From Streptosporangiaceae bacterium (lineage in GTDB: Bacteria > Actinomycetota > Actinomycetes > Streptosporangiales > Streptosporangiaceae): DNA of 64,000 bases. Location: contig JBAUAR010000011.1 in assembly GCA_049675875.1 (NCBI GenBank), positions 2,081-66,080 of the forward strand. The letters are read 5' to 3'. Made by a program: the position numbers and the translations under genes. Positions 49,058 to 64,000 of this stretch are shown piece after piece (the stretch's first letter is position 1; each line of letters begins with the position of its first letter). Below the pieces are notes generated by a model. The model was given only the letters and a program-made list of their open reading frames with translations, made no database searches and was not told where the DNA came from.

Positions 49058-49073
49058 TCGTTCGTGCCGCCAG

Positions 49074-49271
49074 TCGGCTCTCGCCGCCGCGCTGTTGGGA
49101 ATGTCGCACACCGATGCGAAAACGACGGCCGGGCTGATCAAGTTCAACACGTTCACGCACACCGCGACCACGCCCTACTACTTCACCCAGTGGCAGAACG
49201 GAAAGCTCGTCCAGGTGCAGCCACTCGCCCGTGGCGTCACCATCCAGTTGCCTACGGCGGGACTCAGCTAG
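49074..49271 (+). pseudogene. C-terminal remnant of a branched-chain-amino-acid-type ABC substrate-binding protein
   Basis: TTAGLIKFNTFTHTATTPYYFTQWQNGKLVQVQP resembles the C-terminus of LivK-type binding proteins (G-I-F-D...Y-V-Q-NGK-V). No N-terminal part. Confidence 0.35.
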
Positions 49272-49289
49272 CAGTCTGCTGCGGTCAGC

Positions 49290-50072
49290 GTGACTCGACC
49301 ACCAGGAGACTTCGCCATGGGGCAGCCCCTCATCACCGACGAGAATGGCATCCGCTGGATCACCCTGGACCGCCCGGAGATCCGCAACGCCCTGTACGTC
49401 CAGGACCTCACCCGCATCACCGAGGCTGTCACCGGCATCGGTGACAGCGTCAAGGCAATCATTGTGACCGGCAGCGGGGAACGCGCCTTCTCGGCGGGGA
49501 TGCACATCAGCACCTTCGCGGACGCCGCGCCCGAAGATGGCCGGGCGATCATCTCCAGCGTCCGCGACTGCATCGGCGCGATACGGCGAGTGCCGGTGCC
49601 GACAGTGGCGATGATCAACGGCTATTGCATCGGCGCTGGGTTCGAGATGGCACTCGCCTGCGACCTGCGAGTCGCTCACCCAGACGTCCGCCTCGGGCTG
49701 CCCGAAGTCAGACTCGGCATCCCTTCGGTAGTCGAGGCGGCACTGCTGCAGCAGTATGTCGGCCTGTCCAGGGCCAGGGAAATCATCCTCACCGGAGCCC
49801 TGTACCCGGTCACCGAGTTCGCCGCCCAGGGCCTGATCAACCGCACCGTCGAGCCGGCCCAGTTGCGCGCGGCCACACTCGAACTGCTCGGCTCGGTCAC
49901 CGCATGCACCCGTGAAGTCATCGCCGCGCAGAAAGGCCTGTTCGAGACCTGGCTCAACCACGGCCTGCAGAACAGCATCGACACCAGCGTCGACGTCTTC
50001 GCCGACATCTTCCGTGCGCCGGCCACCGCTGTGGCCATCGCGCACTACCAGCAATCCCGTGCGCGGGCCTGA
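49290..50072 (+). CDS. Enoyl-CoA hydratase/isomerase (crotonase) family protein
   Basis: ITLDRPEIRNAL, GSGERAFSAGMHI and INGYCIGAGFEMALACDLRVA. Confidence 0.85.
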   Translation: MTRPPGDFAMGQPLITDENGIRWITLDRPEIRNALYVQDLTRITEAVTGIGDSVKAIIVTGSGERAFSAGMHISTFADAAPEDGRAIISSVRDCIGAIRRVPVPTVAMINGYCIGAGFEMALACDLRVAHPDVRLGLPEVRLGIPSVVEAALLQQYVGLSRAREIILTGALYPVTEFAAQGLINRTVEPAQLRAATLELLGSVTACTREVIAAQKGLFETWLNHGLQNSIDTSVDVFADIFRAPATAVAIAHYQQSRARA

Positions 50073-50078
50073 GCACCG

Positions 50079-50831
50079 TCAGGTCATGCTGCCGGTAGCG
50101 CCCGCCGGCCCGGCCGCGCGGGATCCGGCAGCGAGGAATGCGGTTCCGAAGAACAACTCGGTCCAGCAGACGTCGGTCAGGTCTTCCTGCATGGCTGCGC
50201 GAATCGCCTCCCACGGACGGCGCATGATCCACTGATCGATCGAGGCGAAGGGCCGCACCATGGCGGTTCCGAGCTGCGCTAGCCACCCTGGCGTGTTGCC
50301 GGGAAGCTTGAGATCCAGCACGACCCAGTGTCCGCCGCCAGAAAGGGCCGCGGCGCCGTGGGCGATCACCGCTGCACACTCAGGCACCTGTGACATGGCG
50401 TAGGTGGACAGGATCGCGTCGACCTGGGTCGGGAATTCGAAGTCGACCGCGTCGGCTTGCACGAGGCTGATATTGCTCCAGCCGTTCGTCGCTATCCGAT
50501 CCTGGGCACGGGCGAGCATCGCGTCGGTCAGATCGACGCCGACGATCCGGCCGCTCGGACCGATCGCCTCCTCGAGCAGCGGGAAGTTCAGACCTGTGCC
50601 GCAGGCGATGTCGATGACGCTGTCACCCGCGCGCAGGCCGAGCGCTTGTACGGCCTGGAGGCGTTGTGCCCGCTGGGGATAACCGGGCGCGGGGTAGAGC
50701 CGGGAGGTGATGTCGTAATGCTTCGCCTTCTTGCGGTATGTCTCGATCAGGTGCTCGCGCGTACCGTCAAGCTGGCTCACGGTGTGCTCCTCGATCTCGG
50801 CACCTTCGCGGTAGGACCGCGCGCGATCCAT
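50079..50831 (-). CDS. Class I SAM-dependent methyltransferase (cluster gene)
   Basis: Motif I VIDIACGTGLNF and VGVDLTDAML. The start abuts the stop of the upstream SRPBCC gene (50831/50832). Confidence 0.85.
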   Translation of the reverse strand: MDRARSYREGAEIEEHTVSQLDGTREHLIETYRKKAKHYDITSRLYPAPGYPQRAQRLQAVQALGLRAGDSVIDIACGTGLNFPLLEEAIGPSGRIVGVDLTDAMLARAQDRIATNGWSNISLVQADAVDFEFPTQVDAILSTYAMSQVPECAAVIAHGAAALSGGGHWVVLDLKLPGNTPGWLAQLGTAMVRPFASIDQWIMRRPWEAIRAAMQEDLTDVCWTELFFGTAFLAAGSRAAGPAGATGSMT

Positions 50832-51296
50832 CTAGGACTCCGCGCTTACCCGGCTAGCGGACTCGACCGCAGCCTTGATCGCCACCATCTCCTGATCGCT
50901 TACGCGCTGAACTCTGCCTTTGAGGGTGCGCGGGACCGCGCGCATGATGCCCCCAAGGTCGACCTCAATCCACATCATGGCGTCGGTCCGCCCGTCATCC
51001 ACTGGCTCGAGTTCCATTGCCCAGCGTGCCGCGGAAGTGCCCATCGGCCCGGCGAACGCCACGTAGCGGGGCGCCTCGACAGCGGTCACCTGCTGGCTCC
51101 GGCCGCGAGTCAGCCCGAGTATTCCCTTCGCCCGCTGCTCCACCCGGGAGCCCGGCTGGAGCGCAGCTCCGCCGCGAACCCGGCATTCGAGAACCGTTGG
51201 CGCCCACTCCGGCCAGCGTCCGACGTCACAGACGTACGCCCACACGTCACGGACGCTGCTGGCGATTGTTATGCGGCTCTCGGTTCTGAATGTCAT
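50832..51296 (-). CDS. SRPBCC-superfamily (polyketide cyclase/dehydrase-like) ligand-binding protein
   Basis: ITIASSVRDVWAYVCDVGRWPEWAPTV is a typical SRPBCC N-terminus. About 150 aa. Confidence 0.75.
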   Translation of the reverse strand: MTFRTESRITIASSVRDVWAYVCDVGRWPEWAPTVLECRVRGGAALQPGSRVEQRAKGILGLTRGRSQQVTAVEAPRYVAFAGPMGTSAARWAMELEPVDDGRTDAMMWIEVDLGGIMRAVPRTLKGRVQRVSDQEMVAIKAAVESASRVSAES

Positions 51297-51414
51297 CGAG
51301 CGCACTTTGTCTTGATCACTTTTCAGCTGCATCAGGTCTCCAGCGACGCTCGAGTTAGCGTGAGCCACACCTGCGAGGCCACGTTTGGTTTCACGAGCCG
51401 AGGCGGCGGGTGGT

Positions 51415-52533
51415 TCACGCCCGACCGCTGGTCTCTTCAGGCTGGTTGTTCACCCCGACCGGCACAGGCTTACTGCGCCGGTGGGCGGTCAGTGCGTTCG
51501 CTATCTCGTGTGTGGTGTGTTCCCAGCCGCACAGGCTCGACCGCCGGTTTCGTGCGGCGACTCGCAGCCGGTGTCGGTGGCGCTCGTCGCCCAGCCAGTC
51601 CCCGATCGCGGCGGCGAGGGCAGCCGGATCGCCGGACGGAATCAGTTGACCGGGGCGGGTGCCATCGGCGTTGGAGCCGAGCGCCTCGGGCAGCCCACCG
51701 ACCGCGGCGGCTATGACGGGCAGGCCGTGGGCGAGGGCTTCGGTTACTGCCATGCCGTAGGTCTCCGAGCGGGACGGCGCGATGAGCAGGTCGGCAGTGG
51801 TGTACGCGTGGCTGAGCGCCGCGCCGGTCAGGACCCCGGTGAGCCGAACGCGGTCGCCGAAGCCGAGCCGAGTGATACGGGCTCGCAATTGGCCGGCGAA
51901 GTCCGGGTCGCGGTCGAGCGCTCCGGCCAGCACGCATTGCCAGTCCAGGTCACGCACCTCGGCGAGTGCCTCGACGAGGAGGTCCTGCCCCTTGTGGCGA
52001 CCGAGAGTTCCGACGCAGATCAGCTGACCGCGGACGGGCCGGGCGGGGGCAGCGACCCGATCGACGCCCGGCCGGGCGACGTGCACCCGGCAGGCCGGGA
52101 TCTCGTATCGGGTCAGGACCTGCTGGCGGGTCCAGTCGCTGGTAACGATCACGCCCGTGGCGCCGCGTAGCACGACTCGCTCGGAGCGCTCCGCGCTGGC
52201 GTCGTGGCGGATGCCGAGGGCGGTGGCCAGGGGCATGTGCAGGAGCACTGTCATGCGTATCCGGCCGGCGTGTGGCAGCAGCTGCGCTGCGGTCGGCGAG
52301 GCGATCAGTCCGTCGATCAGGGTGATCTCCCCGTCGGGGATGGCGGAGACGATCCGGGTCAGGTCGGCTCGGGCGTCCGAGTCGGGTACCGGCCACGCCG
52401 CGCCGACGGTCGCGACCAGCACCTCCCAGCCGGCCTCGGCCAGTCCCGCGCAGACCCGCCGGTCGTAGATGTTGCCGCCGGTGGGCTGACCGGGATTGTC
52501 GAAACCCTCGGGGACTACTACGTGGACCCGCAC
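51415..52533 (-). CDS. GT4-family glycosyltransferase (GT-B fold)
   Basis: GGNIYDRRV, and the C-terminal EX7E-type region SRSETYGMAVTEALAHGLPVIA. Confidence 0.85.
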   Translation of the reverse strand: MRVHVVVPEGFDNPGQPTGGNIYDRRVCAGLAEAGWEVLVATVGAAWPVPDSDARADLTRIVSAIPDGEITLIDGLIASPTAAQLLPHAGRIRMTVLLHMPLATALGIRHDASAERSERVVLRGATGVIVTSDWTRQQVLTRYEIPACRVHVARPGVDRVAAPARPVRGQLICVGTLGRHKGQDLLVEALAEVRDLDWQCVLAGALDRDPDFAGQLRARITRLGFGDRVRLTGVLTGAALSHAYTTADLLIAPSRSETYGMAVTEALAHGLPVIAAAVGGLPEALGSNADGTRPGQLIPSGDPAALAAAIGDWLGDERHRHRLRVAARNRRSSLCGWEHTTHEIANALTAHRRSKPVPVGVNNQPEETSGRA

Positions 52534-52646
52534 GATGCTCCCGCCGTCGAGAGCGGCTGCCGCACGGAGCCAGCCGCCAGCCTCCGGCCGATCTGAACTA
52601 CACCCGCCGCCGATCCGTCATACCTGACACAGCATGGTACGGAGAA

Positions 52647-53420
52647 GTGGTGGGCACGGTTCGACGGGATCAGCGAGCACCAACCTTGACGGCACTAGAG
52701 CAGGCACGGGCGGCCGCCTTCCCCGCGGGCGAGTATGTGGGCCAGGAGAGCTTCATGCGGGCGGCCGAGGTCCGCACGCTGGCGCACCGCGCCGGGGTCG
52801 GCCGCGGCGTCTCCGTGCTCGACTTGTGCTGCGGGGTGGCCGGCCCAGGTCGGATGATCACGGCGGAGTCGGGCTGCCGCTACCTGGGCGTTGATCACTC
52901 CGCCCCCGCGCTGGCCATCGCCCGGCAGCTGGCCTCGAACCTGACCTGCCGATTCGAGCAGGCTCACATCCCGCCGCTGCCCGAGGGCCGCTTTGAAGTA
53001 GTACTCCTGCTGGAGACGATGTTGGCGTTTCCCGACAAGGAAGCCTTGGCGGACGGGGTGGCGCGCGTGCTGGAAGTGGGCGGGCGGTTCGCCTTCACGG
53101 TCGAGGAAGGCCGGCCGCTGACCGAGCAGGAGCGAGCCCTGATGCCCGGCGCCGATACGGTCTGGCCCATTCAGCTGGCGAAATTGACAGCTGTGCTGCG
53201 CGAAGCGGGGCTGACCGTTACCTGGCGGCGTGAGGACAGCTCCTCCCATCAGGCAACGGCCGCAGCGCTGCTTCGCTGTTATCGAGCTGACTCACTCCGG
53301 ATCGCCGGCCAGATCGGGGCGCGGGCCACCGCCGACCTGATCACTTCGCACCAGCTCTGGAGCGACTGGATGGACAGCGGGCGGGTGCGCAAGTTCGCGA
53401 TGGTAGCCGAGAAGCAATGA
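52647..53420 (+). CDS. Class I SAM-dependent methyltransferase
   Basis: Motif I VLDLCCGVAGPG and LGVDHSAPAL. GTG start. Confidence 0.8.
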   Translation: MVGTVRRDQRAPTLTALEQARAAAFPAGEYVGQESFMRAAEVRTLAHRAGVGRGVSVLDLCCGVAGPGRMITAESGCRYLGVDHSAPALAIARQLASNLTCRFEQAHIPPLPEGRFEVVLLLETMLAFPDKEALADGVARVLEVGGRFAFTVEEGRPLTEQERALMPGADTVWPIQLAKLTAVLREAGLTVTWRREDSSSHQATAAALLRCYRADSLRIAGQIGARATADLITSHQLWSDWMDSGRVRKFAMVAEKQ

Positions 53421-54331
53421 CCGGCCTCGATGCCGCGTCGGCAACGTCCGGCTATGCCCGCTACCTGGCCGCGAAGACGACCGTGGATGACCAGGCGCTC
53501 AACCGGCAGGTGCTGGCCGAGCTGGGCCACCTGATGCCCGCGGGTGCGCCGCGGGTGCTCGAGGTGGGCGCCGGCCTCGGGACGATGGTGGCACGGCTGC
53601 TGGACTGGGGAGTCGTCGGCGCCGGCGAGTACGTCCTGCTCGATGCGGATCGGCAGCTGCTGGACTGCTCGCGGCGGTGGCTCTGCGATTGGGCGGCCAC
53701 GCGGGGTGTGCGCTGCGACCTGCTGCCGGATGGCCTGCGGCTGGGTGACCTGCGGGTACGCCTGGTGCACGCCGAGCTCGCGGGGTACCTGGAGGCCGGT
53801 CACGCGGAGCTGGCTGAGGTGCTGATCGCCAACGCCGTCCTGGACCTCGTGGACGTGCCGGCCGTGCTGCCCGGATTGCTACGGCTCCTTGTTCCCGGCG
53901 GCCTCTACTGGTTCACGATCAACTACGACGGCGAGAGCATCTTCGCCCCCGGCCACCTGCATGACGACCAGGTCATGCGGGCCTACCACCGCGACATGGA
54001 CGAGCGCATCCGCTACGGCCGGCCAGCGGGCGAAAGCCGCACGGGCCGCCGCCTGTTTCACCACCTGCGGGATGCGCGGGCGCCCGCGCTGGCGGCGGGG
54101 TCGTCGGACTGGGTCGTGTACCCGGCCCCGGATGGGAACTACCCGGCCGACGAGGCTTACTTTCTGGGCAGCATCCTTACTACGATCCGGGACGCATTGC
54201 GGAGTCGCCCGGACCGGGTGGAACCGGCGGACCTGGCCGACTGGCTGGCCGTGCGCCATCGCCAGCTGGCTGCAGGCGAGCTGGTCTACATCGCTCACCA
54301 GCTTGACTTCGTGGGCCGCTCGCCCGGCTAG
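53417..54331 (+). CDS. Class I SAM-dependent methyltransferase, second of a tandem pair
   Basis: Motif I VLEVGAGLGTM and LLDAD. ATGA overlap with the preceding methyltransferase. Confidence 0.75.
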   Translation: MTGLDAASATSGYARYLAAKTTVDDQALNRQVLAELGHLMPAGAPRVLEVGAGLGTMVARLLDWGVVGAGEYVLLDADRQLLDCSRRWLCDWAATRGVRCDLLPDGLRLGDLRVRLVHAELAGYLEAGHAELAEVLIANAVLDLVDVPAVLPGLLRLLVPGGLYWFTINYDGESIFAPGHLHDDQVMRAYHRDMDERIRYGRPAGESRTGRRLFHHLRDARAPALAAGSSDWVVYPAPDGNYPADEAYFLGSILTTIRDALRSRPDRVEPADLADWLAVRHRQLAAGELVYIAHQLDFVGRSPG

Positions 54332-54403
54332 CTCTCTGCCGCCGCACGGCGACGGACAGCAAGCCGACGGAGAACAGCACCGCGAACGTCAATGTCTCGG
54401 ATG

Positions 54404-56269
54404 TCAGCGACGCAAATCAGGATCTAGTCGCAGCGCTGCGATGCATGCCGCGGGCTCTCCGCTCAGGCTGCGCACCAGGACGGCGCTGCCCTCGCCGGAC
54501 ACCGGAATGTCGATGTCGCGCTGGCCGGCCGGCAGCACGACGTCCCTGACGGCTCTTCCGAGCTCAAGCTGCAACGTAGTCGCGGGGCCGGAGTACGAGA
54601 GCCGGATGATCCAGGCGTAACGGAAGACGTGCGCACTGAGCGGTATCCTCGTCGCCGCCGACCGTACCGGCCAGCATGTCCGTGAGCGGGCAGGCCGGAC
54701 GCTCGACGCGCCGACGTCGAGCGCCGGACGCAGTCTCCCCCGGCTGTCGAACATCATCAGGTTCGTGACGGCCCCGCTGGGAGCCGTCACGAAGCGGATC
54801 CCGGCACGTTCCGGCGCGAGCGGTCCGAGTACGCGTGACGTCTGCGTTACCGATCCCCGAAACCCGGCATACATCACGTACCAGGGAGTGGGCGCCGACA
54901 GAATCACGGTGCCGGGTCTCGCGCTAGCCAGCGCCGACCGGGCAGTGTCGATGTACGAGCGCGTCCTCGCGCTGGATGTGCTGCTGAGGTACGTGACCCC
55001 GGACCAGATCGAGCCCACCAGGAACGCTCCGGTCAGGGCGAACGCGCTCACCGCTAGTGGCCCCGAGCGCGGCCGTCTGATGCGGTAGGGATCCTGCTCG
55101 CCAATGACAGGCCAGAACGCAAGCCCGACACAGACAACGAGGACGGGTGCGGAATCGGCCAGGTAGTACGTGTCGGCGCCCAGCAGGCTGGCGGGTAGCT
55201 CGGTCAACCGCGAGATCGCGACCGGTCCGAAGTCAGCCAGCAGCAGCCATCCGGCCAGGATTAGCCAGGACCGCGGCGCATGCCGCCGGTACCACAGGCT
55301 CGCGCCGACGATGAGTCCAGCCAGCACCCAGGTGGCCTGGGTTAGTCCGGGAGTCTCGGCCGCGAAGCCGTAGTCGCCACCGGGCACGAACCAGTGCCAC
55401 GGTCCGCCGACTGCGGCCGGAACGAAGCTGACCCGGAGCATGGTCGCAGCCAGCGACAGCACGCTCGAGACGTCTCTCGGGTTGATCGGCTGCTGGGATG
55501 ATCTCTGCAGCTTGATCAGGAAGATGAGCACATACGCGGCGGTCAGCACTCCATAGATCGTCCAGGCTCGCCGGAAGCTCCGGAGGGTATGCCTGGCCGC
55601 AGCCGGCCAGCGGCCAGGCACAAGATATGCCGACGTCAGGGCGAAGAGCAGCAACGGCACCAGGACGCCCTGCACGTCGAAGAGCAGACCGACACCGAGC
55701 CAGATGGCTGCGGCGACGACATGACCGACACGACCAGAGCGGAGGTACCTGAGGTGGGAACAGGCTGCCGCCAGCATCGTCAACTGCAACGGCAGCCAGT
55801 CCGTCACAGTGGTCCAGAACGACAGCCCGGCCAGCGTCAGCGGCGTGAACAGGAAGATGGTCAGCGGGATCAGGATCGCCGGGCGGCTACCGAACAGGAT
55901 GAGGAGCAGCCGCAGCACCAGCACGCCTGCCGCCGCCAGCGCCGCGATGGTCACGATGGCGGCGAGCAGCCAGTCGTACGGCGACAGCCGGGTCAGCAGC
56001 CAGAACACGACCAGGCCGCCAGGCCGCAGATGGCCGCCACTGAAGCTGAACAAGTAGTTCAGGCTCAGCCCGTGCGACAGCGCACGATCCAGCAGCAGGA
56101 AGTCATCCTGCCGGAAATAGAAGCGCGAGATCAGGTACGCCTTCCAGGACAACTGGGCCACGATCAGCGCGACGGCCGCGAAGATGACGGGATTCCGGCG
56201 GACCCACCCGGCTGAGCCAGTGGCGGCACGCTGAACTGCCGCCGCAGGTAGCTGCCCTAGATCCGGCAC
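54404..56269 (-). CDS. Large polytopic membrane protein with C-terminal extracytoplasmic domain (GT-C-like glycosyltransferase candidate)
   Basis: About 12 TM helices. The first predicted loop carries FYFRQDDFLLLD, a DD motif as in GT-C enzymes. The 180-aa non-membrane C-terminus is unassigned. The family assignment is tentative. Confidence 0.55.
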   Translation of the reverse strand: MPDLGQLPAAAVQRAATGSAGWVRRNPVIFAAVALIVAQLSWKAYLISRFYFRQDDFLLLDRALSHGLSLNYLFSFSGGHLRPGGLVVFWLLTRLSPYDWLLAAIVTIAALAAAGVLVLRLLLILFGSRPAILIPLTIFLFTPLTLAGLSFWTTVTDWLPLQLTMLAAACSHLRYLRSGRVGHVVAAAIWLGVGLLFDVQGVLVPLLLFALTSAYLVPGRWPAAARHTLRSFRRAWTIYGVLTAAYVLIFLIKLQRSSQQPINPRDVSSVLSLAATMLRVSFVPAAVGGPWHWFVPGGDYGFAAETPGLTQATWVLAGLIVGASLWYRRHAPRSWLILAGWLLLADFGPVAISRLTELPASLLGADTYYLADSAPVLVVCVGLAFWPVIGEQDPYRIRRPRSGPLAVSAFALTGAFLVGSIWSGVTYLSSTSSARTRSYIDTARSALASARPGTVILSAPTPWYVMYAGFRGSVTQTSRVLGPLAPERAGIRFVTAPSGAVTNLMMFDSRGRLRPALDVGASSVRPARSRTCWPVRSAATRIPLSAHVFRYAWIIRLSYSGPATTLQLELGRAVRDVVLPAGQRDIDIPVSGEGSAVLVRSLSGEPAACIAALRLDPDLRR

Positions 56270-56354
56270 GGCCTGTAGCCTGCCACGGCCGCCAGCGCGC
56301 GCATCTTTGGGGCGGCGGGGGTCGTGGCAGGTGGCTGATACTGGCGGTCGTCTG

Positions 56355-57134
56355 TCATCGGCCCTCGAGCCCTAGGTCTGCGGGACCGGCGAGCGGGCCA
56401 GCGCGCAGGCGCGGCTCGGCGACGCGTTCACGTCCCCGCGAAACCAGATCGTGCCCGCCGCGCCGGGCCTTGGTGGCGAGGTAAGCGGCGTTGGCCCCGG
56501 TAAGGTGCAGCGCGGTCGGCACTTGCCTGGCGATCGTGATGCCCAGGCGGGCCAGCTGAGCGCTCTTGTCCGGGTTATTGCTCAGCAGCCGGATGCGGCT
56601 GGCGCCCAGCGCGTGCAGCATCTGGGCCGCGCTGGTGTAGTCGCGCTCGTCGGCTAGGTGGCCAAGCGCGAGATTGGCGTCGTAGGTATCCAGACCACCA
56701 TCTTGCAGCGCGTAGGCGTCGAGCTTGTCGTACAGTCCGATGCCGCGCCCTTCCTGGCGCAGATACAGCACATAGCCGCCGTGCTTGGTAATTCGCTCGA
56801 CCGCTTCGCGCAGTTGCGGGCCGCAGTCGCACCGCTGACTGCCGAATACATCACCGGTGAGGCACTCACTGTGCAGGCGTACCAGCGGCAGCACCGCCGC
56901 GGCGGGCCGGCCGAGTTCGAGGGCCAGGTGCGGCTGCGCGTCGGTCAGGCCGGTGAAGCTAACGACCGTGGCAATGGTTGAGTAGTCGTCAGCGAAACGC
57001 AGCGGGATGCGAATTCGGCGGCGGATCGCCGCCCTCGGGATTGCCTCGGTCACGACATGAGCCGTTCGGCCTCGCACCGGGTCGAGGGCACCGTCAGCGG
57101 CGCGCCGAGGCCGGTCACCGGGCTGGCCAGTCAA
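56355..57134 (-). CDS. GTP cyclohydrolase II
   Basis: [24 protein letters not shown] (Zn ligands), [29 protein letters not shown] and [13 protein letters not shown] start in the track is uncertain. Confidence 0.9.
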
Positions 57135-58156
57135 TCACGAGCGACCTCCAACGCCTGCGGCGCCGGATCGGGCCGCTTCGACTCGCCTGGTTGTCCCTGG
57201 TGGCGGCGGCGGCGAGCGGCGTCTCTCAGCAGCAGGCCGGCGCCCGGGGCAACCGCGGCCAGCATGAGTACCGCATACAGCGTGGTGACCGTGACCCCGG
57301 TGGCCGCGCCCAGCCCGGCTGCGGCGAAGGCCCAGGCGGCGGCTCCTTCCCTCAGCCCCCACCCGCCGATGCCGAGGGGGATCACCGTTGCAGTCTGGAC
57401 CACCATCAGCAGTGCGACCAGTTCACCCAGCGGTGCGGTGGACCCGGCAACCCGGGCCGCGACGACGAACGTGGCCGTGTGCCCGGCAACGACCAGCACC
57501 GAGGACAGCATGAGCTGGGGCCACACGTCTGCCGCCAGCAGCCCGCACCGCAGGTCTTCGGCAATGGCACGGGCTGCGCGGGCCAGCCGCGACCGACCGC
57601 GGCGAGCTGCGGCCCACACCACCAGCGCAGCGCACCCGGCTACACCCGCGAGACCTGCCAGGATGTACGGCAGCGCGGGCCGGACCGGCGAGGGCAGCGC
57701 CAGCAACACGACGGCGGTCACCACGGCCTGGATGATCTGACCGCACAGCCGTTCCCACGCCACCGAGCGCAGCCCCCGAGTCACGTCTCCAGCGCGCCGG
57801 CCGTGCGTGACCGCCCGGTGCACGTCGCCGAGAACGCCTCCGATGAGCACGGAGTTCAGGAACAGGGAACGGTAGTAGGCGCCGATCGCGCTCGGCAGGC
57901 CAATGGCGACGCCGAGTACCCGGGCGACGACCCGCCACCGCCAGGCCGAGCACGCCGTCGTCAGGGCAGTGAGCGTGACGGCGGCCACGACCGCCGGCCA
58001 GGTGACCGCGCCCAGCCCGGCTCTGAACGGCGCAGCGCCCAGCAGCCGGAAGAGAAACCACAGCACGGTGACGCCGACCGCCGGGCGCAACAAGGGCAGG
58101 CCCAGGCGGCGGACCACGGGACCGATCCCGGCCGCAACTGAGTACACGGACGCCAC
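57131..58156 (-). CDS. LPG-synthase-TM / flippase-like domain (UPF0104) membrane protein
   Basis: About 8 TM helices. Pattern [11 protein letters not shown]...[21 protein letters not shown] is typical of this family. The stop overlaps the GCH II start. Confidence 0.7.
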
Positions 58157-58302
58157 ACCGGGTTACACGGGCCCGCTGGACTCATAGTTCAACCGCCCGG
58201 CTGCGGCAGCGTAGCGGGACCGGGAGCGATGAACCAGCCCGACTGCTGTCCCGTTGTCCCTGTCAGGTATAGCGGCAGACGGCCAGCAAAGACGGAGGCG
58301 CG

Positions 58303-60702
58303 GTGCGTGCGATTCGCCCGGTGGACGAAGAGGCCGCGACTGAGAGCCCGGTAGACGACGGCGCGCTGCGTACGATTCGGCGCGCGGCAGTCATCGGCTT
58401 GCCCGCCTCGGCCGCCTTGCTCGGCGTCGTGTCTGCCACGGCTGGTCTCGGCGTGGCCGGCTGGATAGCGGGCCTGGCCACCGGCACAGCGGCGACGGCG
58501 CTGATTGCCACCGCCCGCAGCCGCAGCGACCAGCCGGCGATACTCCCGGCGGACTGGGTCACCCTGACCCGGGCGGTGTTGTGCGCCGGGGTCGCGGGCC
58601 TAGTTGCGGACTCCTTCGGCCGGCCCGTGTCGATCACAGCGATGGTCACCCTGGCCGCCGTCGCGCTGGCCCTCGACGCGGTGGACGGTCAGGTGGCCCG
58701 CCGGACCGGCACCGCCACCCCGCTGGGCGGCCGCCTCGACGGTGAGGTCGACGCCTTCCTCATCCTGCTGCTCAGCATCGCCGTGTCCCGGGACTACGGC
58801 AGCTGGGTGCTGATCATCGGCGCCGCTCGCTACGCGCTGCTGGTGGCTGGCTGGCTGATCCCGTGGCTGGCCGCACCGTTGCCGCCCCGGTACTGGCGCA
58901 AGGTCGTGGCCGCGGTCCAGGGCATCGTGCTCACCATCGCCGTATCCGGGGTGCTCGACCTCTTCACCGGGTTGATCGCGGTTGCTGCCGCTTTGCTGCT
59001 GCTGGCCGAGTCGTTCGGCCACGACGTGATCTGGCTGTACCGCACCGGCGTCGGGCCGCGCACTCGCCTGGCTCTGCAGCTGCCCATTGCCGTGCTTGCG
59101 ATCGCGCTCGTGTGGAGCGACCTCGTCGCGCCCGACCGTGCCTGGCTGTTCACCCCCGCCGCTTTTGTCCGCATCCCTCTGGAGGGGCTGGTCCTGGTTG
59201 CTGTGGCGCTGTTGCTGCCGCTCCGGCCGAGACGGATCGTGGCTGCCGTCGCTGGAATCCTGCTCAGCGTGCTCACCTTCGCCAACATCCTCAACATTGC
59301 GTTCTACGAATATGTCGATCGAGCGTTCAACCCGGTGTACGACTGGGGCAGCATCGGCTCGGCTCTGGGCGTGGTCCGCGACGAGATCGGCCCCAAGCGC
59401 ACAGACGTGGCGCTCGTCTTGCTCGGGCTCGCTCTCATCCTGCTCGTCGGCGCGATCACCGCAGCAACAGTTCACCTCACCACTGTCGCCGCCCGGCATC
59501 GCCGCGCCGCGTTTGGCGGTCTCGCTGGCCTCACAGCAGTCTGGGCGGTGTGTGCCGGCCTGTCCCTGCAATTCATCCCCGGATCCCCGATCGCCTCGAC
59601 CAGTGCTACCGGCCTCGCCGTCGCGCAGCTGCGTGCAACCCAGGCAGCGCTCGGCGACCAGCGCGTGTTCGAGCGGGCCATCCACGGCTCTGACCCCGAA
59701 GCCAGCGTCCCGGCCTCGGACCTGCTCACCGGATTGCGCGGCAAAGACGTCATCATCGCCTTCGTCGAGAGCTACGGACAGGTCTCGATCCAGGGCGCAA
59801 GTTTCTCCCCGGGCATCGACGCCGCCCTGCGCAAAGACAACGCATCGCTGGCTAGCGCAGGCTGGTCCACGCAGACCGCCTGGGTTGCCGCCCCGGGCTA
59901 TGGCGGGATCAGCCAGGAGGCCCACTCCACCCTGCAGTCGGGGCTGTGGGTTAACAGCCGGCAGCGGTATTCGGAGCTCGTAGCCAGCAGCCGGTTCACC
60001 CTCAGCGACGCCTTCGACAAGGCCGGCTGGCGCACCGTCAGCGACAGCCCCGCCACCGACGACGAAGACTGGCCGTCCGGCACGCAGTTCTACCACTTCG
60101 ACCAGCTGTACGACCGGACCAACGTCGGCTACCACGGCCCGGCATTCAGCTACGCCCCGATGCCCGACCAGTACATTCTGTCCGCGTTCCAGCGGATCGA
60201 ACTCGCCCCCGGCCATAAGCCCGTGATGGCCGAGATCGACACGGTCTCGTCGCACTCGCCCTGGGCCCCGTTGCCGGTCATGGTGCCGTGGAACAAGGTC
60301 GGCAACGGCTCGATATTCGACCCGATGCCCGCGCGCGGCGAGACCGCGCTCTCCGTCCTGGACAACGCCAGCAGGCAGCGCAAGGCCTATGCCACGTCGA
60401 TCGAGTACTCGCTGCAGGTCCTCACCTCATGGGTCACCGAGCTCAACGATCCCAACCTCGTGCTGATCCTGCTCGGCGACGAGCAGCCCGACACCCCCAT
60501 CACCAGCCCCGGGGCCAGTCACAACCTGCCGATCTCCATCATCGCCCGCGACCCGTCCGTGTTCCGGCAGATTGCCTCCTGGCACTGGCAGGACGGGCTG
60601 CTGCCCGGTCGGCACGCTCCGGTCGAGCGAATGAGCGCCTTCCGCAACCAGTTCCTGGGTTCCTTCAGCACGACCCAGTCCCAGGCAGCGTCGACCCATT
60701 GA
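58303..60702 (+). CDS. Fusion protein: CDP-alcohol phosphatidyltransferase + TM linker + alkaline-phosphatase-superfamily (LtaS/sulfatase-like) ectodomain
   Basis: DAVDGQVARRTGTATPLGGRLDGEVDAF fits D-x2-D-G-x2-A-R-x8-G-x3-D-x3-D. The C-terminal third has KDVIIAFVESYG, GYGGISQEAHSTLQSGL and DTVSSHSPW, resembling metal-binding, nucleophile and His motifs of LtaS/OpgB-type enzymes. Confidence 0.75.
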   Translation: MRAIRPVDEEAATESPVDDGALRTIRRAAVIGLPASAALLGVVSATAGLGVAGWIAGLATGTAATALIATARSRSDQPAILPADWVTLTRAVLCAGVAGLVADSFGRPVSITAMVTLAAVALALDAVDGQVARRTGTATPLGGRLDGEVDAFLILLLSIAVSRDYGSWVLIIGAARYALLVAGWLIPWLAAPLPPRYWRKVVAAVQGIVLTIAVSGVLDLFTGLIAVAAALLLLAESFGHDVIWLYRTGVGPRTRLALQLPIAVLAIALVWSDLVAPDRAWLFTPAAFVRIPLEGLVLVAVALLLPLRPRRIVAAVAGILLSVLTFANILNIAFYEYVDRAFNPVYDWGSIGSALGVVRDEIGPKRTDVALVLLGLALILLVGAITAATVHLTTVAARHRRAAFGGLAGLTAVWAVCAGLSLQFIPGSPIASTSATGLAVAQLRATQAALGDQRVFERAIHGSDPEASVPASDLLTGLRGKDVIIAFVESYGQVSIQGASFSPGIDAALRKDNASLASAGWSTQTAWVAAPGYGGISQEAHSTLQSGLWVNSRQRYSELVASSRFTLSDAFDKAGWRTVSDSPATDDEDWPSGTQFYHFDQLYDRTNVGYHGPAFSYAPMPDQYILSAFQRIELAPGHKPVMAEIDTVSSHSPWAPLPVMVPWNKVGNGSIFDPMPARGETALSVLDNASRQRKAYATSIEYSLQVLTSWVTELNDPNLVLILLGDEQPDTPITSPGASHNLPISIIARDPSVFRQIASWHWQDGLLPGRHAPVERMSAFRNQFLGSFSTTQSQAASTH

Positions 60703-60735
60703 CCCGCCGCACCGCACCCGCCACAGTGAGCGCTG

Positions 60736-61377
60736 ATGACACTGGGCTGGGATAACCCCACAGCAGATCCCACCACCACCGTCTTGCTGCGGCACGGCGA
60801 TACCGACCTGTCACCCGAACACCGCTTCAGCGGGCTTCGCGACGTCCCGCTGAGCGCTCACGGAACCCGGCAGGCGAAGGCGGCGGCTTGCCGGCTGGCC
60901 GCCGGTGCTCCGATCGACGCCGTGGTCAGCTCGCCGTTGCAGCGCGCCGTCGCCACCGCCGCCATCGCGGCCGGCGAACTGGGCCTGACCGCAGTCATCG
61001 ATGATGATCTCCGTGAAACCGACTTCGGCGACTGGGATGGCTTCACCCTGGCAGAAATCCAGGAGCGCTGGCCCGGAGCCGCGGCAGTCTGGCGACGCGA
61101 CCCCGAACAGGCCCCGCCGGGCGGGGAGAGCTTCGCCGACACCGCACACCGGGTAAACCGGGCCTGTGACCGGCTGCTGCGGGATCACGGCGGGCAGAAC
61201 GTGCTGGTGGTGAGTCACATTACCCCGATAAAGATCCTGTTGTGCCGCGCTCTCGGCGTCCCCCTCGGCACCCTTTACCGGCTGTATCTTGGCTCCGCCT
61301 GCATCAACGAGATCCAATGGCACGGCCGCGGGTTTGCTGCCGTCCATCGCGTTAATGACACCAGCCACCTTCCCTGA
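60736..61377 (+). CDS. Histidine phosphatase (phosphoglycerate mutase-like) family protein
   Basis: Has the RHG motif LLRHGDTDLS plus SSPLQRAVATA and VVSHITPIK. Confidence 0.85.
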   Translation: MTLGWDNPTADPTTTVLLRHGDTDLSPEHRFSGLRDVPLSAHGTRQAKAAACRLAAGAPIDAVVSSPLQRAVATAAIAAGELGLTAVIDDDLRETDFGDWDGFTLAEIQERWPGAAAVWRRDPEQAPPGGESFADTAHRVNRACDRLLRDHGGQNVLVVSHITPIKILLCRALGVPLGTLYRLYLGSACINEIQWHGRGFAAVHRVNDTSHLP

Positions 61378-61402
61378 CTCACGGCTGGCGTACGTGTCGG
61401 CG

Positions 61403-61783
61403 TCATTGGACACCTCCTAGTTCCTCGATGGCGAGCCGTAGCGCACGCAGCGCGTAGTAGGCGCGGGACTTCACCATGTCTGGCGCGATGTCCAGGGCAT
61501 CCGCAGCCTGTGCAACCGAGCTGCCGCGAAAGCAGCACTCTCGCAGCACGTCCAGATGCTCCTGCGTCAGCCGGCCTAACGCGGCGGCGACCAGGTGGTG
61601 GTTGACGAGCTGCTCGCTAGCTTCGGCGACTGGCTGCTCGGGGCGGCGCCCGGTTACGTCCTCGGGGCGTCGGCGCTGCTCGTGCAACTCGGGCAGCGAG
61701 TCCGCCTCGGGGCTGCCCGCTCGTCGCGCGGCAAGCCGCTCTGGTCGACGAGCGCGCGGCTCACCGGTCGGCTCGGTTGCCAT
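61403..61783 (-). CDS. Sigma-70 region-4-only protein (ECF sigma C-terminal half with low-complexity N-terminus)
   Basis: LGRLTQEHLDVLRECCFRGSSVAQAADALDIAPDMVKSRAYYALRALR is ECF region 4. No region 2 in this ORF or in any frame of the 205 nt upstream. Confidence 0.6.
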   Translation of the reverse strand: MATEPTGEPRARRPERLAARRAGSPEADSLPELHEQRRRPEDVTGRRPEQPVAEASEQLVNHHLVAAALGRLTQEHLDVLRECCFRGSSVAQAADALDIAPDMVKSRAYYALRALRLAIEELGGVQ

Positions 61784-61988
61784 CCCCGCCGCTACTCCAG
61801 TCCCGTTGTGCGCCTGGCGGCTGCGCCTCGTTCACCAGCATCTGCTCCGTCTCGGATTGCGTGACCTGGCTCGCGACAGGAATCGATGGTACCGCGGGCT
61901 GCGGTCGGAGGTCGGTCGGCCGAAGTCGGCGGCCGCGCACCTGGCCTCCCGCTACGAGGGCGTTAAGCCCAGCTTGTCCGGTAGAGCG

Positions 61989-62366
61989 TCAGCATCGTGC
62001 GTGATACCCGCCGAACGCGACGGGAGTTTCCCACACCCGCACTGCCAGTGACTCGCCGCCTGCGGCAGCGACGGTCGGCGAGAGGGTGTCATGCACCCAG
62101 CGGGCGAACACTTCGACTGTGACCGCCTCGGCCTCGGCTGGGCGTATCTCCTCCAGATTGCGGCCATCGACCTGGCTGGTGAGCTCGGTCAGCGCCGCTT
62201 CCAGTACATCCAGATCACAGACCATGCCCCGGCCGTCGAGTTGCTCCCGGTCCACCACAATGTCAATTCGGTAGTCATGATCATGCAGCTGCCCCTCTGG
62301 CCCGGGGAGTCCCGGCATGATATGGAAAGCACGCACGCTTCGGCTCAGCCCGACTTCACATGTCAC
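61989..62366 (-). CDS. 6-pyruvoyl-tetrahydropterin synthase / QueD-fold protein
   Basis: RAFHIMPG...EGQLHDHDYRIDIVV...GMVCDLDVLEAAL fits the PTPS/QueD pattern (AAH...HGH...DF..L). Probable GTG start at 62366; the longest ORF reaches 62399. Overlaps the upstream dehydrogenase stop. Confidence 0.75.
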   Translation of the reverse strand: MTCEVGLSRSVRAFHIMPGLPGPEGQLHDHDYRIDIVVDREQLDGRGMVCDLDVLEAALTELTSQVDGRNLEEIRPAEAEAVTVEVFARWVHDTLSPTVAAAGGESLAVRVWETPVAFGGYHARC

Positions 62367-63357
62367 CGGCAGCACTCCTGTCGTAGTCAAGAACGGCATG
62401 CATCAACCCGGGTATCCCCTCGTCCACAGCTTGGAACGCCTCGGCTGCCTGGCCGAACGCGAAGCGGTGAGTGCACAGCTGGGACAACGGTAGTTCGGCC
62501 AGCAGCTCAACGGTCTCCCGGATGCGCCGCGACCGCGTCCAGGTCCCAGACAGCCGGGCCGGCACCGTGGAGACCTGAGTACTGCGGATGATCAGACGCC
62601 GCCGGTGGAACGCGCCGCCGAGCGGCAGCACCACTGGTTTGGTGCCGAACCACGACGCGATCAATAGGGTTCCCTCGTGGGCCAGCATGTTCAACGCCAT
62701 CGGTGGCGCATCCGGGTTACCACTAGCGTCAATGACCAGTGGAACCTGCTCTTCCGCCAGTTCCTCCGGCGCTGCGGCGGTGGCGCCGAGGCTGTCGGCC
62801 AGGGCGCGGCGCCACGGCTGCGGCTCGGCAAGGACCGGCCGCCACCCGGAACGCTGCAACAGCAGGCTGGTCAGCAGCCCGAGCACACCGGCTCCGAGCA
62901 CGATGACACGGTCGCGATATCCGGTCCCGGCATCGAGCGTCACCTGCAGCGCCGTCTCGACCAGCGGGAACAAGGTTGCGGCGGCGGGATCGATGGCAGG
63001 CAACGGAATCAGGTCATCGGCCCGGGCCGCGAATACGTCCTGGTGCGGATGGAACGCGAAGACCGCCCGGCCGGACGCCGCTACTTCGCCGACACACGCA
63101 TACCCATAGGCGAAGGGATAGGAGAAGGTGCCGCCAAGAGCGTCGATCGTGTCGTCCAGCGCCAAGTCGGCAGGGACCTCGCCGCGGTACACCAGGCGCT
63201 CGGTGCCACCACTGATGCCAGAGCACAAGGTGCGCACAAGGACCTCGCCGGCCGCAGGCCGCGGTGCGGGCACTTCCCTGATATCCACGCAGCGCGGGGC
63301 GGCATGAAACAGTGCGCGGGCGGGCGAGGTTGTGTCCGTAACAGTGGATTCGGTCAT
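62356..63357 (-). CDS. Zinc-binding medium-chain dehydrogenase/reductase
   Basis: VLVRTLCSGISGGTERLVYRG, Rossmann VIVLGAGVLGL. ATG at 63357. The in-frame upstream extension to 63630 is an SDR remnant. Confidence 0.8.
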   Translation of the reverse strand: MTESTVTDTTSPARALFHAAPRCVDIREVPAPRPAAGEVLVRTLCSGISGGTERLVYRGEVPADLALDDTIDALGGTFSYPFAYGYACVGEVAASGRAVFAFHPHQDVFAARADDLIPLPAIDPAAATLFPLVETALQVTLDAGTGYRDRVIVLGAGVLGLLTSLLLQRSGWRPVLAEPQPWRRALADSLGATAAAPEELAEEQVPLVIDASGNPDAPPMALNMLAHEGTLLIASWFGTKPVVLPLGGAFHRRRLIIRSTQVSTVPARLSGTWTRSRRIRETVELLAELPLSQLCTHRFAFGQAAEAFQAVDEGIPGLMHAVLDYDRSAAGDM

Positions 63358-63767
63358 GCGCGGTTGAGCCTCCAGCGGTAGATCGTCGGTAGCGGCCGCC
63401 TGCGCGACAGCTCCCATGACGGCGTTATAGACGACGACGCCCGGTGCGCCAGTTCCGAGATAGAGCTCCCTCATCCGGTCGCCCAGGCCATCGGGATCGC
63501 TGGCATCGGCCACGATGGTGCTGATGCTGGCACCGGTATCGGCCAAGGTGCCCGCGAGGTTGCGGAGGCCGTCCGTGCTCCGCGCCACCAGGGTCACCCG
63601 GTAGCCGCCCACCGCGAAGCGACGTGCCACGGCCAGTCCCAGGCCAGTCCAAGGCCAGGCCCCGCGCCGACCAGTAGCAGGTGGCGGCCATCGACTGAGC
63701 CGGGACCCGCGACGTCGGCGATCGCGCCTTCTCCGTTGCCGGGCTCGCCTGCTCCCTCGGTGGGCAT
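63358..63767 (-). pseudogene. Short-chain dehydrogenase (SDR) remnant: frameshifted by an 11-nt tandem duplication and truncated after about 100 codons
   Basis: ATG 63767 with an AGGAAG RBS. LLLVGAGPGLGLA is followed by the inserted TGGGACTGGCC. The sequence then continues in another frame as VARRFAVGGYRVTLVARS...VVVYNAVMGA and runs into the dehydrogenase gene. Confidence 0.55.
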
Positions 63768-63896
63768 GGGTGCTTCCTTTCGCGTCGACCGCCTCGGAAA
63801 GCGGCTCGGGCTGGTGACTCTGTCGATCCCCTGACGTCGCGGAATCATTCAGTCTGGCAGGTCCTCCCCGGCTGCCCCCCTCGCAATGCCCCGCCG

Positions 63897-63937
63897 GTGC
63901 CCCTGGCGGGAATCGAACCCGCTCTTTCCGCTTTAGA
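63897..63937 (-). pseudogene. tRNA 3'-half fragment (anticodon loop to discriminator)
   Basis: The minus strand reads CUCUAAA-GCGGA-AAGA-GCGGG-UUCGAUU-CCCGC-CAGGGGC-A. No matching 5' acceptor, D-arm or 5' anticodon-stem strand lies upstream. An unrelated 7-bp hairpin sits at 63950-63966. Confidence 0.45.
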
Positions 63938-64000
63938 GGCCCGGCTACCAGCCGACCGGCGGTCGGCTCTCCGCCGGCCGGGCCTCGAGGTGCTCGGCCG

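Follow-up and report, generated by a model that had tools for sequence, protein, structure and literature searches.

The window analysed here, a stretch of 64,000 nucleotides of high-GC DNA from a Streptosporangiaceae bacterium, carries a gene cluster in which a GTP cyclohydrolase II (GCH II; 56355-57134, minus strand) is encoded together with a protein of the PTPS/QueD fold, referred to as the T-fold protein (61989-62399, minus strand), and a dehydrogenase of the MDR superfamily (62356-63357, minus strand). A sequence-only reading of this DNA had proposed that the T-fold protein, the dehydrogenase and a nearby histidine phosphatase perform new chemistry on an aminopyrimidine derived from GCH II. 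Related loci support this core claim: a single-gene fusion of GCH II with a RibD_C reductase domain, either whole or cut by a contig end, adjoins the MDR and T-fold genes in 13 of the 17 loci inspected outside the window's lineage. The overall best explanation, which we consider fairly probable, is an orphan GTP-derived pathway that would run via the GCH II product, its remodelling by the T-fold and MDR proteins and subsequent decoration. The fusions contain no deaminase domain, and their position beside the T-fold and MDR genes is strong gene-fusion evidence that the route goes via the GCH II product and the ribityl form of it; it also connects the T-fold protein with this product and not with dihydroneopterin triphosphate. 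Judged by gene content and similarity, the window cluster is a mosaic, lineage-specific variant of the orphan actinobacterial SCO6650-SCO6655 or PTPS-IV-neighbourhood cluster.

PTPS/QueD proteins (COG0720) are a textbook case of mis-annotated paralogues. The association of PTPS-IV with GCH II (PF00925) and RibD_C (PF01872) is already in print (PMC5445326, available text). No description of the pathway, of SCO6648-SCO6655 or of a product was found in the main texts of the literature searched; a metabolic-model paper and a transcriptome paper list the SCO6648-SCO6655 gene numbers only. What is new, as far as the sequence comparisons go, is a metal-keeping clade of T-fold proteins (type A, defined below), a compact GCH II-RibD_C module and its insertion into a membrane-linked cluster in the window's lineage; the type-A clade may already be listed in the 'PTPS paralogs' subsystem or in paper supplements. 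Type-A proteins and their PTPS-IV counterparts (type B) are together present in about one sixth of the Actinomycetes genomes sampled, including Streptomyces-like ones. The zinc-keeping type-A form, which occurs in a compact five-gene module and usually beside the GCH II-RibD_C fusion, is probably the easiest in vitro entry to the chemistry, and should the pathway yield a GTP-derived glycoside or a lipid head group, this product would represent a new branch of purine, flavin and pterin metabolism and perhaps a new envelope component.

Recurrence of the gene set and origin of the window cluster

Type-A proteins are orthologues of the window T-fold protein and share the motif PEG..HxHxY. Distant loci were taken from searches of genome samples, while the contig search gave close relatives from the window's lineage only (at least 90% identical). 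Type-A proteins are found in 13 of 400 other genomes of the class (56-63% identity), among them the unpublished genome G303 (locus L089), and in 26 of 400 genomes sampled across the phylum (49-73% identity), where they cluster in two families that belong to other classes (17 of 21 and 6 of 26 genomes). Unpublished genomes are also counted in the phylum tally (G626, G715, G698), in the type-B tally (G023, G372) and, several of them, in the tally of CofH homologues given below. The 17 loci inspected outside the lineage comprise ten from the class sample and seven further ones, and the MDR and T-fold genes are adjacent in 15 of them. The GCH II-RibD_C fusion was identified by Pfam matches to both PF00925 and PF01872 at two loci and by full-length or contig-cut tblastn homologues at the others. 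The four remaining loci comprise two with RibD_C only and two (in G041 and G071) that have neither MDR nor GCH II. The compact type-A modules are completed by one or two genes for GT4 glycosyltransferases and by a phosphatase of the HAD or the histidine family. Since the association recurs in many independent lineages, the pairing of GCH II and T-fold protein is not a matter of chance. Some of the loci are in states of decay: the fusion in L109 (G044) has lost its GCH II domain, a fusion remnant of 30 residues is left in L104 (G041), which has no MDR gene, neither of the two was found in L106 (G071), and the fusion falls into three tblastn pieces in L108 (G318).

Within the window's lineage, 80 loci were fetched, 56 of which span the full 20 kb and were used for gene counts. 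The T-fold protein, the MDR protein, the histidine phosphatase, a CDP-alcohol phosphatidyltransferase fusion protein, a flippase-like membrane protein and the methyltransferase-like protein MT3 are encoded in all 56, the GT4 glycosyltransferase in 55 and GCH II in 44. The nearest protein relatives of the window are labelled Streptosporangiaceae bacterium and Trebonia kvetii.

Type-B proteins were detected in 61 of the 400 class genomes, including 14 of 22 large Streptomyces-like ones. All 30 type-B proteins inspected share the motif FGPAQ.LHGAT[YF], whereas the motif PEG..HxHxY is found in 14 of 14 type-A proteins. FGPAQ is the signature of PTPS-IV, in whose neighbourhood PF00925 and PF01872 were described; PF00925 is mislabelled as FolE2 there (PMC5445326, available text). 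In 13 type-B loci, the MDR, T-fold and GT4 genes are always contiguous, and the flippase-like gene (12 loci), the CDP-alcohol transferase gene (11), a stand-alone RibD_C gene (10) and a GCH II gene (9) are frequent companions, so that GCH II and/or RibD_C are present in 12 of the 13. A methyltransferase gene often lies between the GT4 and flippase-like genes. In S. coelicolor, SCO6650 is reported to be a metal-free PTPS homologue with no assigned function, whose crystal structure contains no metal, and SCO6655 is reported to be a Met-type GCH II paralogue that forms a formamidopyrimidine. The biochemistry of both was reportedly studied by Spoonamore, Bandarian and co-workers in 2006 and 2008.

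Searches of solved structures with the type-A family profile (alignment A1) gave SCO6650 (3D7J) as the best match (E 2.1e-19), followed by the QueD-type chains 2OBA, 4NTK and 4NTM (E 7e-15 to 3e-14). In a tree of 68 T-fold proteins, which included 13 metagenome representatives with type A, type A and type B each formed a clade (support 100/98 and 100/100, respectively); the relation between the two and the placement of an intermediate FGPA+HxH group received no more than 54/72 support, on 132 columns only. On these alignments, the type-A proteins are a separate clade that keeps the metal site lost by PTPS-IV. The intermediate group includes L186 and L187 (family f71; complete genomes G414 and G483), whose T-fold form, FGPA(S/T)R.HGHTY, joins a PTPS-IV-like FGPA to a complete HxH and is encoded in compact RibD_C-MDR-T-fold-GT4 modules without GCH II. 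A weak T-fold match at locus L122 of genome G253 lies in a different neighbourhood.

The window cluster resembles the PTPS-IV/SCO6650 cluster in its set of MDR, T-fold, GT4, methyltransferase, LPG_synthase_TM, CDP-alcohol transferase and GCH II genes, a set that in the PTPS-IV cluster also holds RibD_C. Measured per tblastn segment, the window and type-B loci are 62-76% identical in GCH II, 41-48% in GT4, 44-54% in the flippase-like protein and 40-58% in the CDP-alcohol transferase. The window cluster differs, however, in that it lacks RibD_C and adds a histidine phosphatase, a SRPBCC protein and extra methyltransferases, and its T-fold protein, which belongs to its own clade, has PGPEGQLHDH with three intact His and the Glu in place of FGPAQ..HGA. 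Closer relatives of the MDR/T-fold pair were found elsewhere: at locus L181 of a genome from another class (G518), the T-fold protein is 74%, the MDR protein 61.5% and the phosphatase 55.7% identical to those of the window, and the best T-fold identity among the 400 class genomes, 63%, is below that value. In the window's own family, none of 22 genomes has a type-A and seven have a type-B protein. The closeness of L181 and the absence of type A from the family sample together suggest that the MDR/T-fold pair was laterally replaced in the window's lineage. The window GCH II is 62-76% identical to the stand-alone enzymes of type-B clusters and 40-64% identical to those of type-A loci, which are mostly fused to RibD_C (tblastn segments; 48-58% for full-domain matches), and the GT4, flippase-like and CDP-alcohol proteins are about equally similar (41-58%) to type-B clusters and to the type-A locus L105. 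Going by these identities, the cluster is a mosaic, with T-fold, MDR and phosphatase genes like those of L181 and a GCH II gene nearer to type-B than to fused type-A GCH II.

The T-fold protein, GCH II and the dehydrogenase

The T-fold protein matches PF01242 with 73.1 bits (cut-off 22.4) and the QueD model TIGR03367 with 46.3 bits, well below the cut-off of 89.25. Alignment to E. coli QueD (4NTK and 4NTM) revealed that both proteins share the fold, a similar length, the T-x-E and E anchors and the three zinc-binding His, which correspond to the His of RAFH and the two of HDH in the window protein. In contrast to QueD, however, the window protein has a Glu four residues ahead of the first His of HDH, where the wild-type enzyme 4NTM has the catalytic Cys (KCGRLHGH); the QueD Cys itself aligns with this Glu or with a gap, as the loop is two residues shorter. 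The catalytic His of QueD (D-H in LDHHYL) is lost as well, being replaced by D-G, and the gene is not located beside queC or queE. The zinc motif and the Glu at the Cys position four residues before it had been pointed out in the sequence-only reading, and both are borne out by the alignment. A hidden catalytic Cys elsewhere in the motif, the presence of which would have changed this picture, is excluded, because the Cys residues at positions 14, 61 and 136 are not conserved in alignment A1. Conserved in type-A proteins are the three His (His26, His39 and His41), Glu35, T-V-E and W-E-S/T. Every copy inspected keeps the site of three His and Glu, namely all 14 orthologues from the class genomes (the window protein included), all 80 copies from the lineage and all 7 from the phylum sample.

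The motifs defined for PTPS-I (CxxxHGH), PTPS-II (CxxxxxHGH) and PTPS-III (ExxHGH) in the available text of PMC5041015 are all absent from the window protein. It has EGQLHDH and D-G instead of the CxxxHGH and catalytic Asp-His of QueD/PTPS-I, no Cys ahead of HDH as in PTPS-II, and a Glu four instead of three residues before an HDH rather than an HGH, which rules out membership in PTPS-III. The earlier suggestion that a change from Cys to Glu marks a PTPS subgroup thus stands in part: the Glu occupies the Cys site, but ExxxHDH does not fit the published PTPS-III motif, and the likeness is one of analogy, not membership. PTPS-III enzymes, which replace dihydroneopterin aldolase, also have a Glu for Cys near HxH; however, that Glu is one position closer to the His, and the context of the window gene is not that of folate synthesis, a folB-like gene being found by eye in the folate region on contig C402. 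The PTPS-IV signature FGPAQ is likewise missing (PGPEGQ), while the PTPS-IV neighbourhood is recognisable: PF00925 is present in the window, and PF01872, fused to it at 13 of 17 type-A loci, is absent from the window. The NCBI-type annotation label '6-carboxytetrahydropterin synthase' is contradicted by these sequence features. Furthermore, the same genome has a queD-queC pair on contig C602 and another PTPS of the CxxxHGH type on C39, so that the window protein is not the QueD of this genome, nor is it the sole PTPS there. The choice of start codon is uncertain: with the ATG at 62399, the gene would share 44 nt with the MDR gene, and the starts of relatives are matched better by the GTG codons at 62375 and 62366.

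The GCH II protein, a canonical stand-alone enzyme by its sequence, was recognised by PF00925 (184.1 bits, cut-off 23.3) and by the NCBIfam RibA model NF001591 (247.7 bits, cut-off 148). Aligned to RibA of E. coli (2BZ0) and H. pylori (4RL4) and to RibBA of M. tuberculosis (4I14), it keeps the three zinc-binding Cys (HSECLTGD...RCDCG) and, within DAYALQD, the Tyr at the position of Tyr105 in E. coli RAYALQD, in agreement with what had been read from the (R/D)AYALQD motif; ADERDY with its Arg is kept, too. The residue at the Tyr105 position separates GCH II enzymes that form a diaminopyrimidine from those that form a formamidopyrimidine. It is Met in the cluster enzymes of the Streptomyces-like loci L154 and L155 and Leu in L156, but Tyr in the window and the rest. 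The start of the GCH II gene and the stop of the flippase-like gene overlap by 4 nt.

The window is part of contig C11 in an assembly of 669 contigs that is 92% complete. The same genome carries a ribE-ribBA-ribH operon on contig C56, and the GCH II of the cluster is thus a spare copy; it cannot be the genome's only ribA, nor does its position between genes for membrane proteins fit a role in a riboflavin operon. GCH I (PF01227) is encoded neither in the window nor on its contig, as had been noted for the window; the genome's two folE genes are located on C402, next to genes that by eye on translated ORFs resemble ftsH, folP and folB, and on C164, outside the folate operon. The housekeeping ribBA and folE genes for which the earlier reading had advised a search are therefore present elsewhere, as is queD. 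A CofH/FbiC homologue is also encoded in the genome.

The MDR protein matches PF00107 with 32.6 bits and shows low-scoring similarity to BchC and to dehydrogenases of secondary alcohols and polyols (top NCBIfam match bchC, 80 bits against a cut-off of 291). It had been read as a Zn-dehydrogenase next to a histidine phosphatase; the phosphatase and the dehydrogenase family were confirmed, but the zinc was not, because the classical catalytic zinc ligands of threonine dehydrogenase 2DFV are replaced by Ser and Tyr-Ala. In the window protein and in four orthologues, SGISGGTE stands in place of the Cys motif GxCxxD and YGY in place of GHE. The gene starts at ATG 63357, in accordance with relatives that align from residues 85-111 of a 424-aa ORF, and its stop overlaps the T-fold ORF; from this arrangement, the two genes are translationally coupled. 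The MDR protein is 47-62% identical to MDR proteins of type-A loci and 36-39% identical to a type-B one, which, by sequence identity, means that MDR and T-fold proteins co-diversify. Upstream of the MDR start (63358-63999, minus strand; the 424-aa ORF reaches 63630), a weak PF00106 match to residues 1-80 of the 424-aa ORF marks an in-frame N-terminal remnant of a short-chain dehydrogenase (adh_short), which takes up about the first 90 residues of that ORF and is a broken gene that abuts the cluster and lies outside the MDR gene proper.

A putative pathway and competing explanations

In the proposed pathway, GCH II would convert GTP to 2,5-diamino-6-ribosylamino-4(3H)-pyrimidinone 5'-phosphate (DAROPP), from which a RibD_C reductase, fused or adjacent in relatives, would produce the ribitylamino form. 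The fused RibD_C domains have DAROPP reductases as their closest solved relatives (6P8C, E 5.7e-41, and 2AZN), and in the window's genome this step is probably supplied by a homologue on the 1.6-kb contig C573 (L114:657-1385), the nearest RibD_C candidate, which is 59% identical to cluster-type RibD_C. On that contig, the gene is divergent from a minus-strand ORF (3-845) that by eye resembles the cobalamin synthase gene cobS. The ribitylaminopyrimidine 5'-phosphate would be a ring-opened analogue of neopterin 3'-phosphate, and with a substrate from the GCH II route, the T-fold protein would need no dihydroneopterin triphosphate from GCH I. In its active site, the conserved glutamates of T-x-E and W-E-S/T would hold the 2-amino-4-oxopyrimidine, the C3'/C4' diol would bind the three-His metal where the side-chain diol of a pterin binds zinc, and Glu35 would serve as the base instead of Cys. 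The MDR and T-fold proteins would act as a pair on the side chain: most likely, the MDR protein oxidizes a side-chain hydroxyl, followed by T-fold-dependent ring closure to a dihydropterin and/or PTPS-like side-chain chemistry, which would yield a pterin-like compound or a modified pyrimidine alcohol. The histidine phosphatase would then take off the 5'-phosphate, the GT4 glycosyltransferase would add a sugar and the methyltransferases would methylate the compound. The membrane module of the lineage probably serves to link the product to a phospholipid or to hand it on to the envelope, with the CDP-alcohol transferase predicted on the inside, the flippase-like protein in the membrane and a sulfatase-like domain possibly outside; its presence would fit an end product that is linked to a lipid or exported. 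The most far-reaching form of this proposal, namely an undescribed class of GTP-derived metabolites (ribitylaminopyrimidines or pterins) that are made from the GCH II product instead of the GCH I product, glycosylated and methylated and, in the window's lineage, flipped as a phospholipid head group and possibly delivered to the cell envelope, is put forward tentatively, as we think it somewhat more likely to be wrong than right. In this scenario, the type-A T-fold protein would represent a novel class of PTPS-fold catalyst, which would use the three-His metal and the Glu on a ring-opened neopterin analogue.

Parts of this scheme have parallels in known systems. The cyanobacterial route to tetrahydrobiopterin glycosides consists of GCH I, PTPS, sepiapterin reductase and a pteridine glycosyltransferase; by analogy, the window encodes a cyclohydrolase, a PTPS-fold protein, an NAD(P) oxidoreductase and a group-1 glycosyltransferase. 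However, the window pathway would start with GCH II (and RibD_C), involves an MDR instead of a short-chain dehydrogenase and adds methyltransferases and membrane-lipid enzymes. The early riboflavin steps of archaea and fungi, in which reduction precedes deamination (6P8C, 2AZN, Rib7), likewise combine GCH II with a RibD_C that has no deaminase domain, and the stand-alone RibD_C of L123 has TIGR01508 as its best match. Unlike in these organisms, the specificity position of the fused RibD_C is occupied by Lys and not by Asn or Thr, the module includes no synthase for lumazine or riboflavin and the housekeeping rib operon is separate. The CDP-alcohol transferase, phosphatase and GT4 of the window are reminiscent of the logic of phosphatidylinositol and phosphatidylinositol mannoside synthesis (PgsA1-type enzyme, phosphatase, the GT4 PimA), and the MprF-like flippase domain and the possible sulfatase/LtaS-like ectodomain recall lipid flipping and head-group transfer of the MprF/LtaS type. 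These likenesses are analogies: the window proteins match the respective families far under their cut-offs, and the membrane module is missing from four of five compact type-A genomes. Azacitidine-type chemistry, which starts from a GCH I homologue according to the available text of PMC13749301, is not relevant here.

Several observations weigh against an orphan pathway from the GCH II product to a decorated, lipid-linked compound. RibD_C was found neither in the window nor at any of the 80 lineage loci, each searched over 10 kb around the cluster, and in one relative, the candidate lies on the same contig as the cluster but about 1.5 Mb away. In 12 of the 56 lineage loci, GCH II does not occur within 10 kb, which indicates that a dedicated GCH II is dispensable. 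As type-B T-fold proteins lack the third metal-binding His and the Glu, chemistry based on metal and Glu would not be universal to the pathway. The fused RibD_C domains carry a Lys at the position of Lys151 in BsRibG, although the cluster encodes no deaminase, and a Lys at this position has been linked to a deaminated substrate (PMC3631187); this leaves room for a deamination step, possibly performed by the T-fold protein. The T-fold protein keeps exactly the pterin-binding residues and the genome has two folE genes, so that a FolE-derived pterin is a conceivable substrate. Homologues of the CDP-alcohol transferase and the flippase-like protein are absent genome-wide from four of five compact type-A genomes; lipid attachment would thus not be intrinsic, and the small-molecule module can stand alone. 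Finally, the sulfatase assignment described below is a language-model lead.

Alternatively, the cluster might serve to supply a precursor of riboflavin or F420. In that case, GCH II, RibD_C and the phosphatase would make 5-amino-6-ribitylaminouracil together with the T-fold protein, which could, for instance, be the deaminase that is otherwise missing or a deformylase. The gene set indeed spans all early riboflavin steps apart from the deaminase, the three-His metal and the Glu close to it could plausibly form a hydrolytic centre, a Lys would suit a deaminated substrate and the window's genome has a CofH/FbiC homologue. However, no CofH was detected at E<=1e-30 in 7 of the 13 type-A carriers (G303 among them) and in 12 of the 61 type-B carriers of the class, and 13 more type-B genomes gave weak CofH matches only, which stayed below the curated cut-off (E 1e-72 to 1e-91). 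This census makes supply of F420 or riboflavin unlikely as a general role, less so for the window's genome with its CofH; a full rib operon already exists in the genome, type-B proteins have no complete metal site, and the T-fold protein is always joined by the MDR and GT4 proteins, neither of which is needed for riboflavin or F420. Altogether, we regard this role as improbable.

The T-fold protein could also act on an ordinary FolE-derived pterin, dihydroneopterin triphosphate or monophosphate, as PTPS-III and QueD do, with GCH II as a neighbour for unrelated or regulatory reasons. This would account for the intact zinc triad and pterin-anchoring Glu residues, for the second folE on C164 and for the 12 lineage loci without the cluster GCH II, but it leaves the GCH II-RibD_C fusions at 13 of 17 type-A loci, and the GCH II and/or RibD_C genes at 12 of 13 type-B loci, unexplained. 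Moreover, the QueD, PTPS-II and PTPS-III motifs all fail, catalytic Cys and His are both gone, and PF01227 is absent from the window and its contig (no search for GCH I was made in the related loci); such a substrate thus seems quite unlikely. A similarly low probability is assigned to a T-fold protein that is no enzyme at all but a ligand-binding or scaffold subunit of the MDR protein, which holds a labile aminopyrimidine for oxidation or reduction. The overlap and co-diversification of the two genes would fit such a subunit, as would the SCO6650 crystal structure, reported as metal-free, and the widespread type-B form, which lacks the Glu and one of the metal ligands and is yet under selection in the same cluster. 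In type A, on the other hand, the three His and the Glu are invariant in all three sets of sequences given above, which argues for catalysis in this clade; a non-catalytic role is plausible for type B and less so for type A. The orphan pathway from the GCH II product remains the explanation that we prefer.

Phosphatase, decorating enzymes and membrane proteins of the cluster

Gene calls between 50079 and 63357 are based on the ORF list and on Pfam and NCBIfam profile scans. The histidine-family phosphatase (60736-61377, plus strand) is CobC/alpha-ribazole-phosphatase-like, with 199.8 bits for PF00300 (cut-off 21.7) and 146 bits for TIGR03162 (cut-off 163), and is present in all 56 full-length lineage loci. 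It is probably the 5'-phosphate phosphatase of the pathway. Its orthologue in L181 comes after the MDR, T-fold and GT4 genes, whereas a HAD phosphatase replaces it in other type-A loci (e.g., L107). The Aquifex ARAPDP phosphatase belongs to the histidine family, and both families have precedent on ribityl-5'-phosphates (PMC12051542).

The GT4 glycosyltransferase (51415-52533, minus strand; PF00534, 108.3 bits) matches the NCBIfam models of EpsE (NF041876, 88.7 bits) and MshA (86.7 bits) best, both far under the cut-offs. In 12 of the 13 type-B loci, the T-fold gene is followed by a GT4 gene whose product is 41-48% identical to it. Among the methyltransferases, the class I S-adenosylmethionine-dependent enzyme MT2 (52647-53420, plus strand; PF13649, 44.3 bits; 50 of 56 lineage loci) has orthologues of 56-58% identity that flank the type-B clusters L159 and L161. 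The divergent MT3 (53417-54331, plus strand) has weak Pfam matches only and is weakly related to the methyltransferase encoded between the GT4 and flippase-like genes of type-B clusters; it is 27% identical (E 4e-6) to L158:11413-12234, a protein that matches PF13649 with 32 bits. A third methyltransferase (50079-50831, minus strand; PF13649, 60.5 bits; 49 of 56) and a SRPBCC/polyketide-cyclase-like protein (50832-51368, minus strand; PF10604, 58.6 bits; 52 of 56) are lineage-specific additions.

The LPG_synthase_TM or MprF-flippase-like membrane protein (57131-58156, minus strand) matches PF03706 with 95.8 bits. It is followed by the gene for the polytopic 799-aa CDP-alcohol phosphatidyltransferase fusion (58303-60702, plus strand), which consists of an N-terminal transferase domain (PF01066, 40.4 bits, cut-off 22) with an intact D..DG..AR..G...D...D motif at residues 125-150, further membrane segments and a C-terminal soluble domain of about 370 aa. 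Its top NCBIfam match is archaetidylinositol-phosphate synthase (E 3.8e-6), and a crude hydropathy count gave about 10-12 membrane segments with no reliable orientation. Residues 430-799 have no Pfam match at E<=1 and no sequence match in the PDB; the feature similarity of 0.97 to PF00884 sulfatase clusters in the ESM Atlas, the language-model lead mentioned above, indicates that this domain may be sulfatase- or LtaS-like. The two parts are joined in one polypeptide in the window and most other loci, while at L154:6350-8597 (Streptomyces-like) the CDP-alcohol transferase and the C-terminal, perhaps sulfatase-like part are encoded by two genes on opposite strands. The gene immediately downstream of GCH II encodes a polytopic membrane protein of 621 aa (54404-56269, minus strand) with no Pfam or NCBIfam match; as it is present in just 5 of the 56 full-length lineage loci, it appears to be a lineage-variable, accessory insert and not a member of the pathway.

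In the region 49000-64000, no riboswitches for flavin mononucleotide, prequeuosine-1 (preQ1) or tetrahydrofolate were found at E<=1. At 63858-63940, weak Rfam matches to beta_tmRNA (a fragment, 20.7 bits) and Plastid-ycf2 (25.1 bits), both far under the gathering scores, coincide with the spot at which the sequence-only reading had seen a tRNA 3'-half fragment. Between the phosphatase and T-fold genes lies the remnant of an extracytoplasmic function (ECF) sigma factor that retains region 4 only (61403-61783, minus strand). It scores 23.7 bits for PF04545 (cut-off 24.1) and 77.7 bits for NF007227, covering only positions 90-174 of the 177 in that model, and is present in 22 of 56 lineage loci. 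Over 74 aa, the remnant shares 47% identity with a segment within L123:5238-6181, which lies beside a type-B cluster and just upstream of an ORF that by eye encodes a putative zf-HC2-type anti-sigma factor; the cluster may thus once have been, or elsewhere still be, under ECF sigma control.

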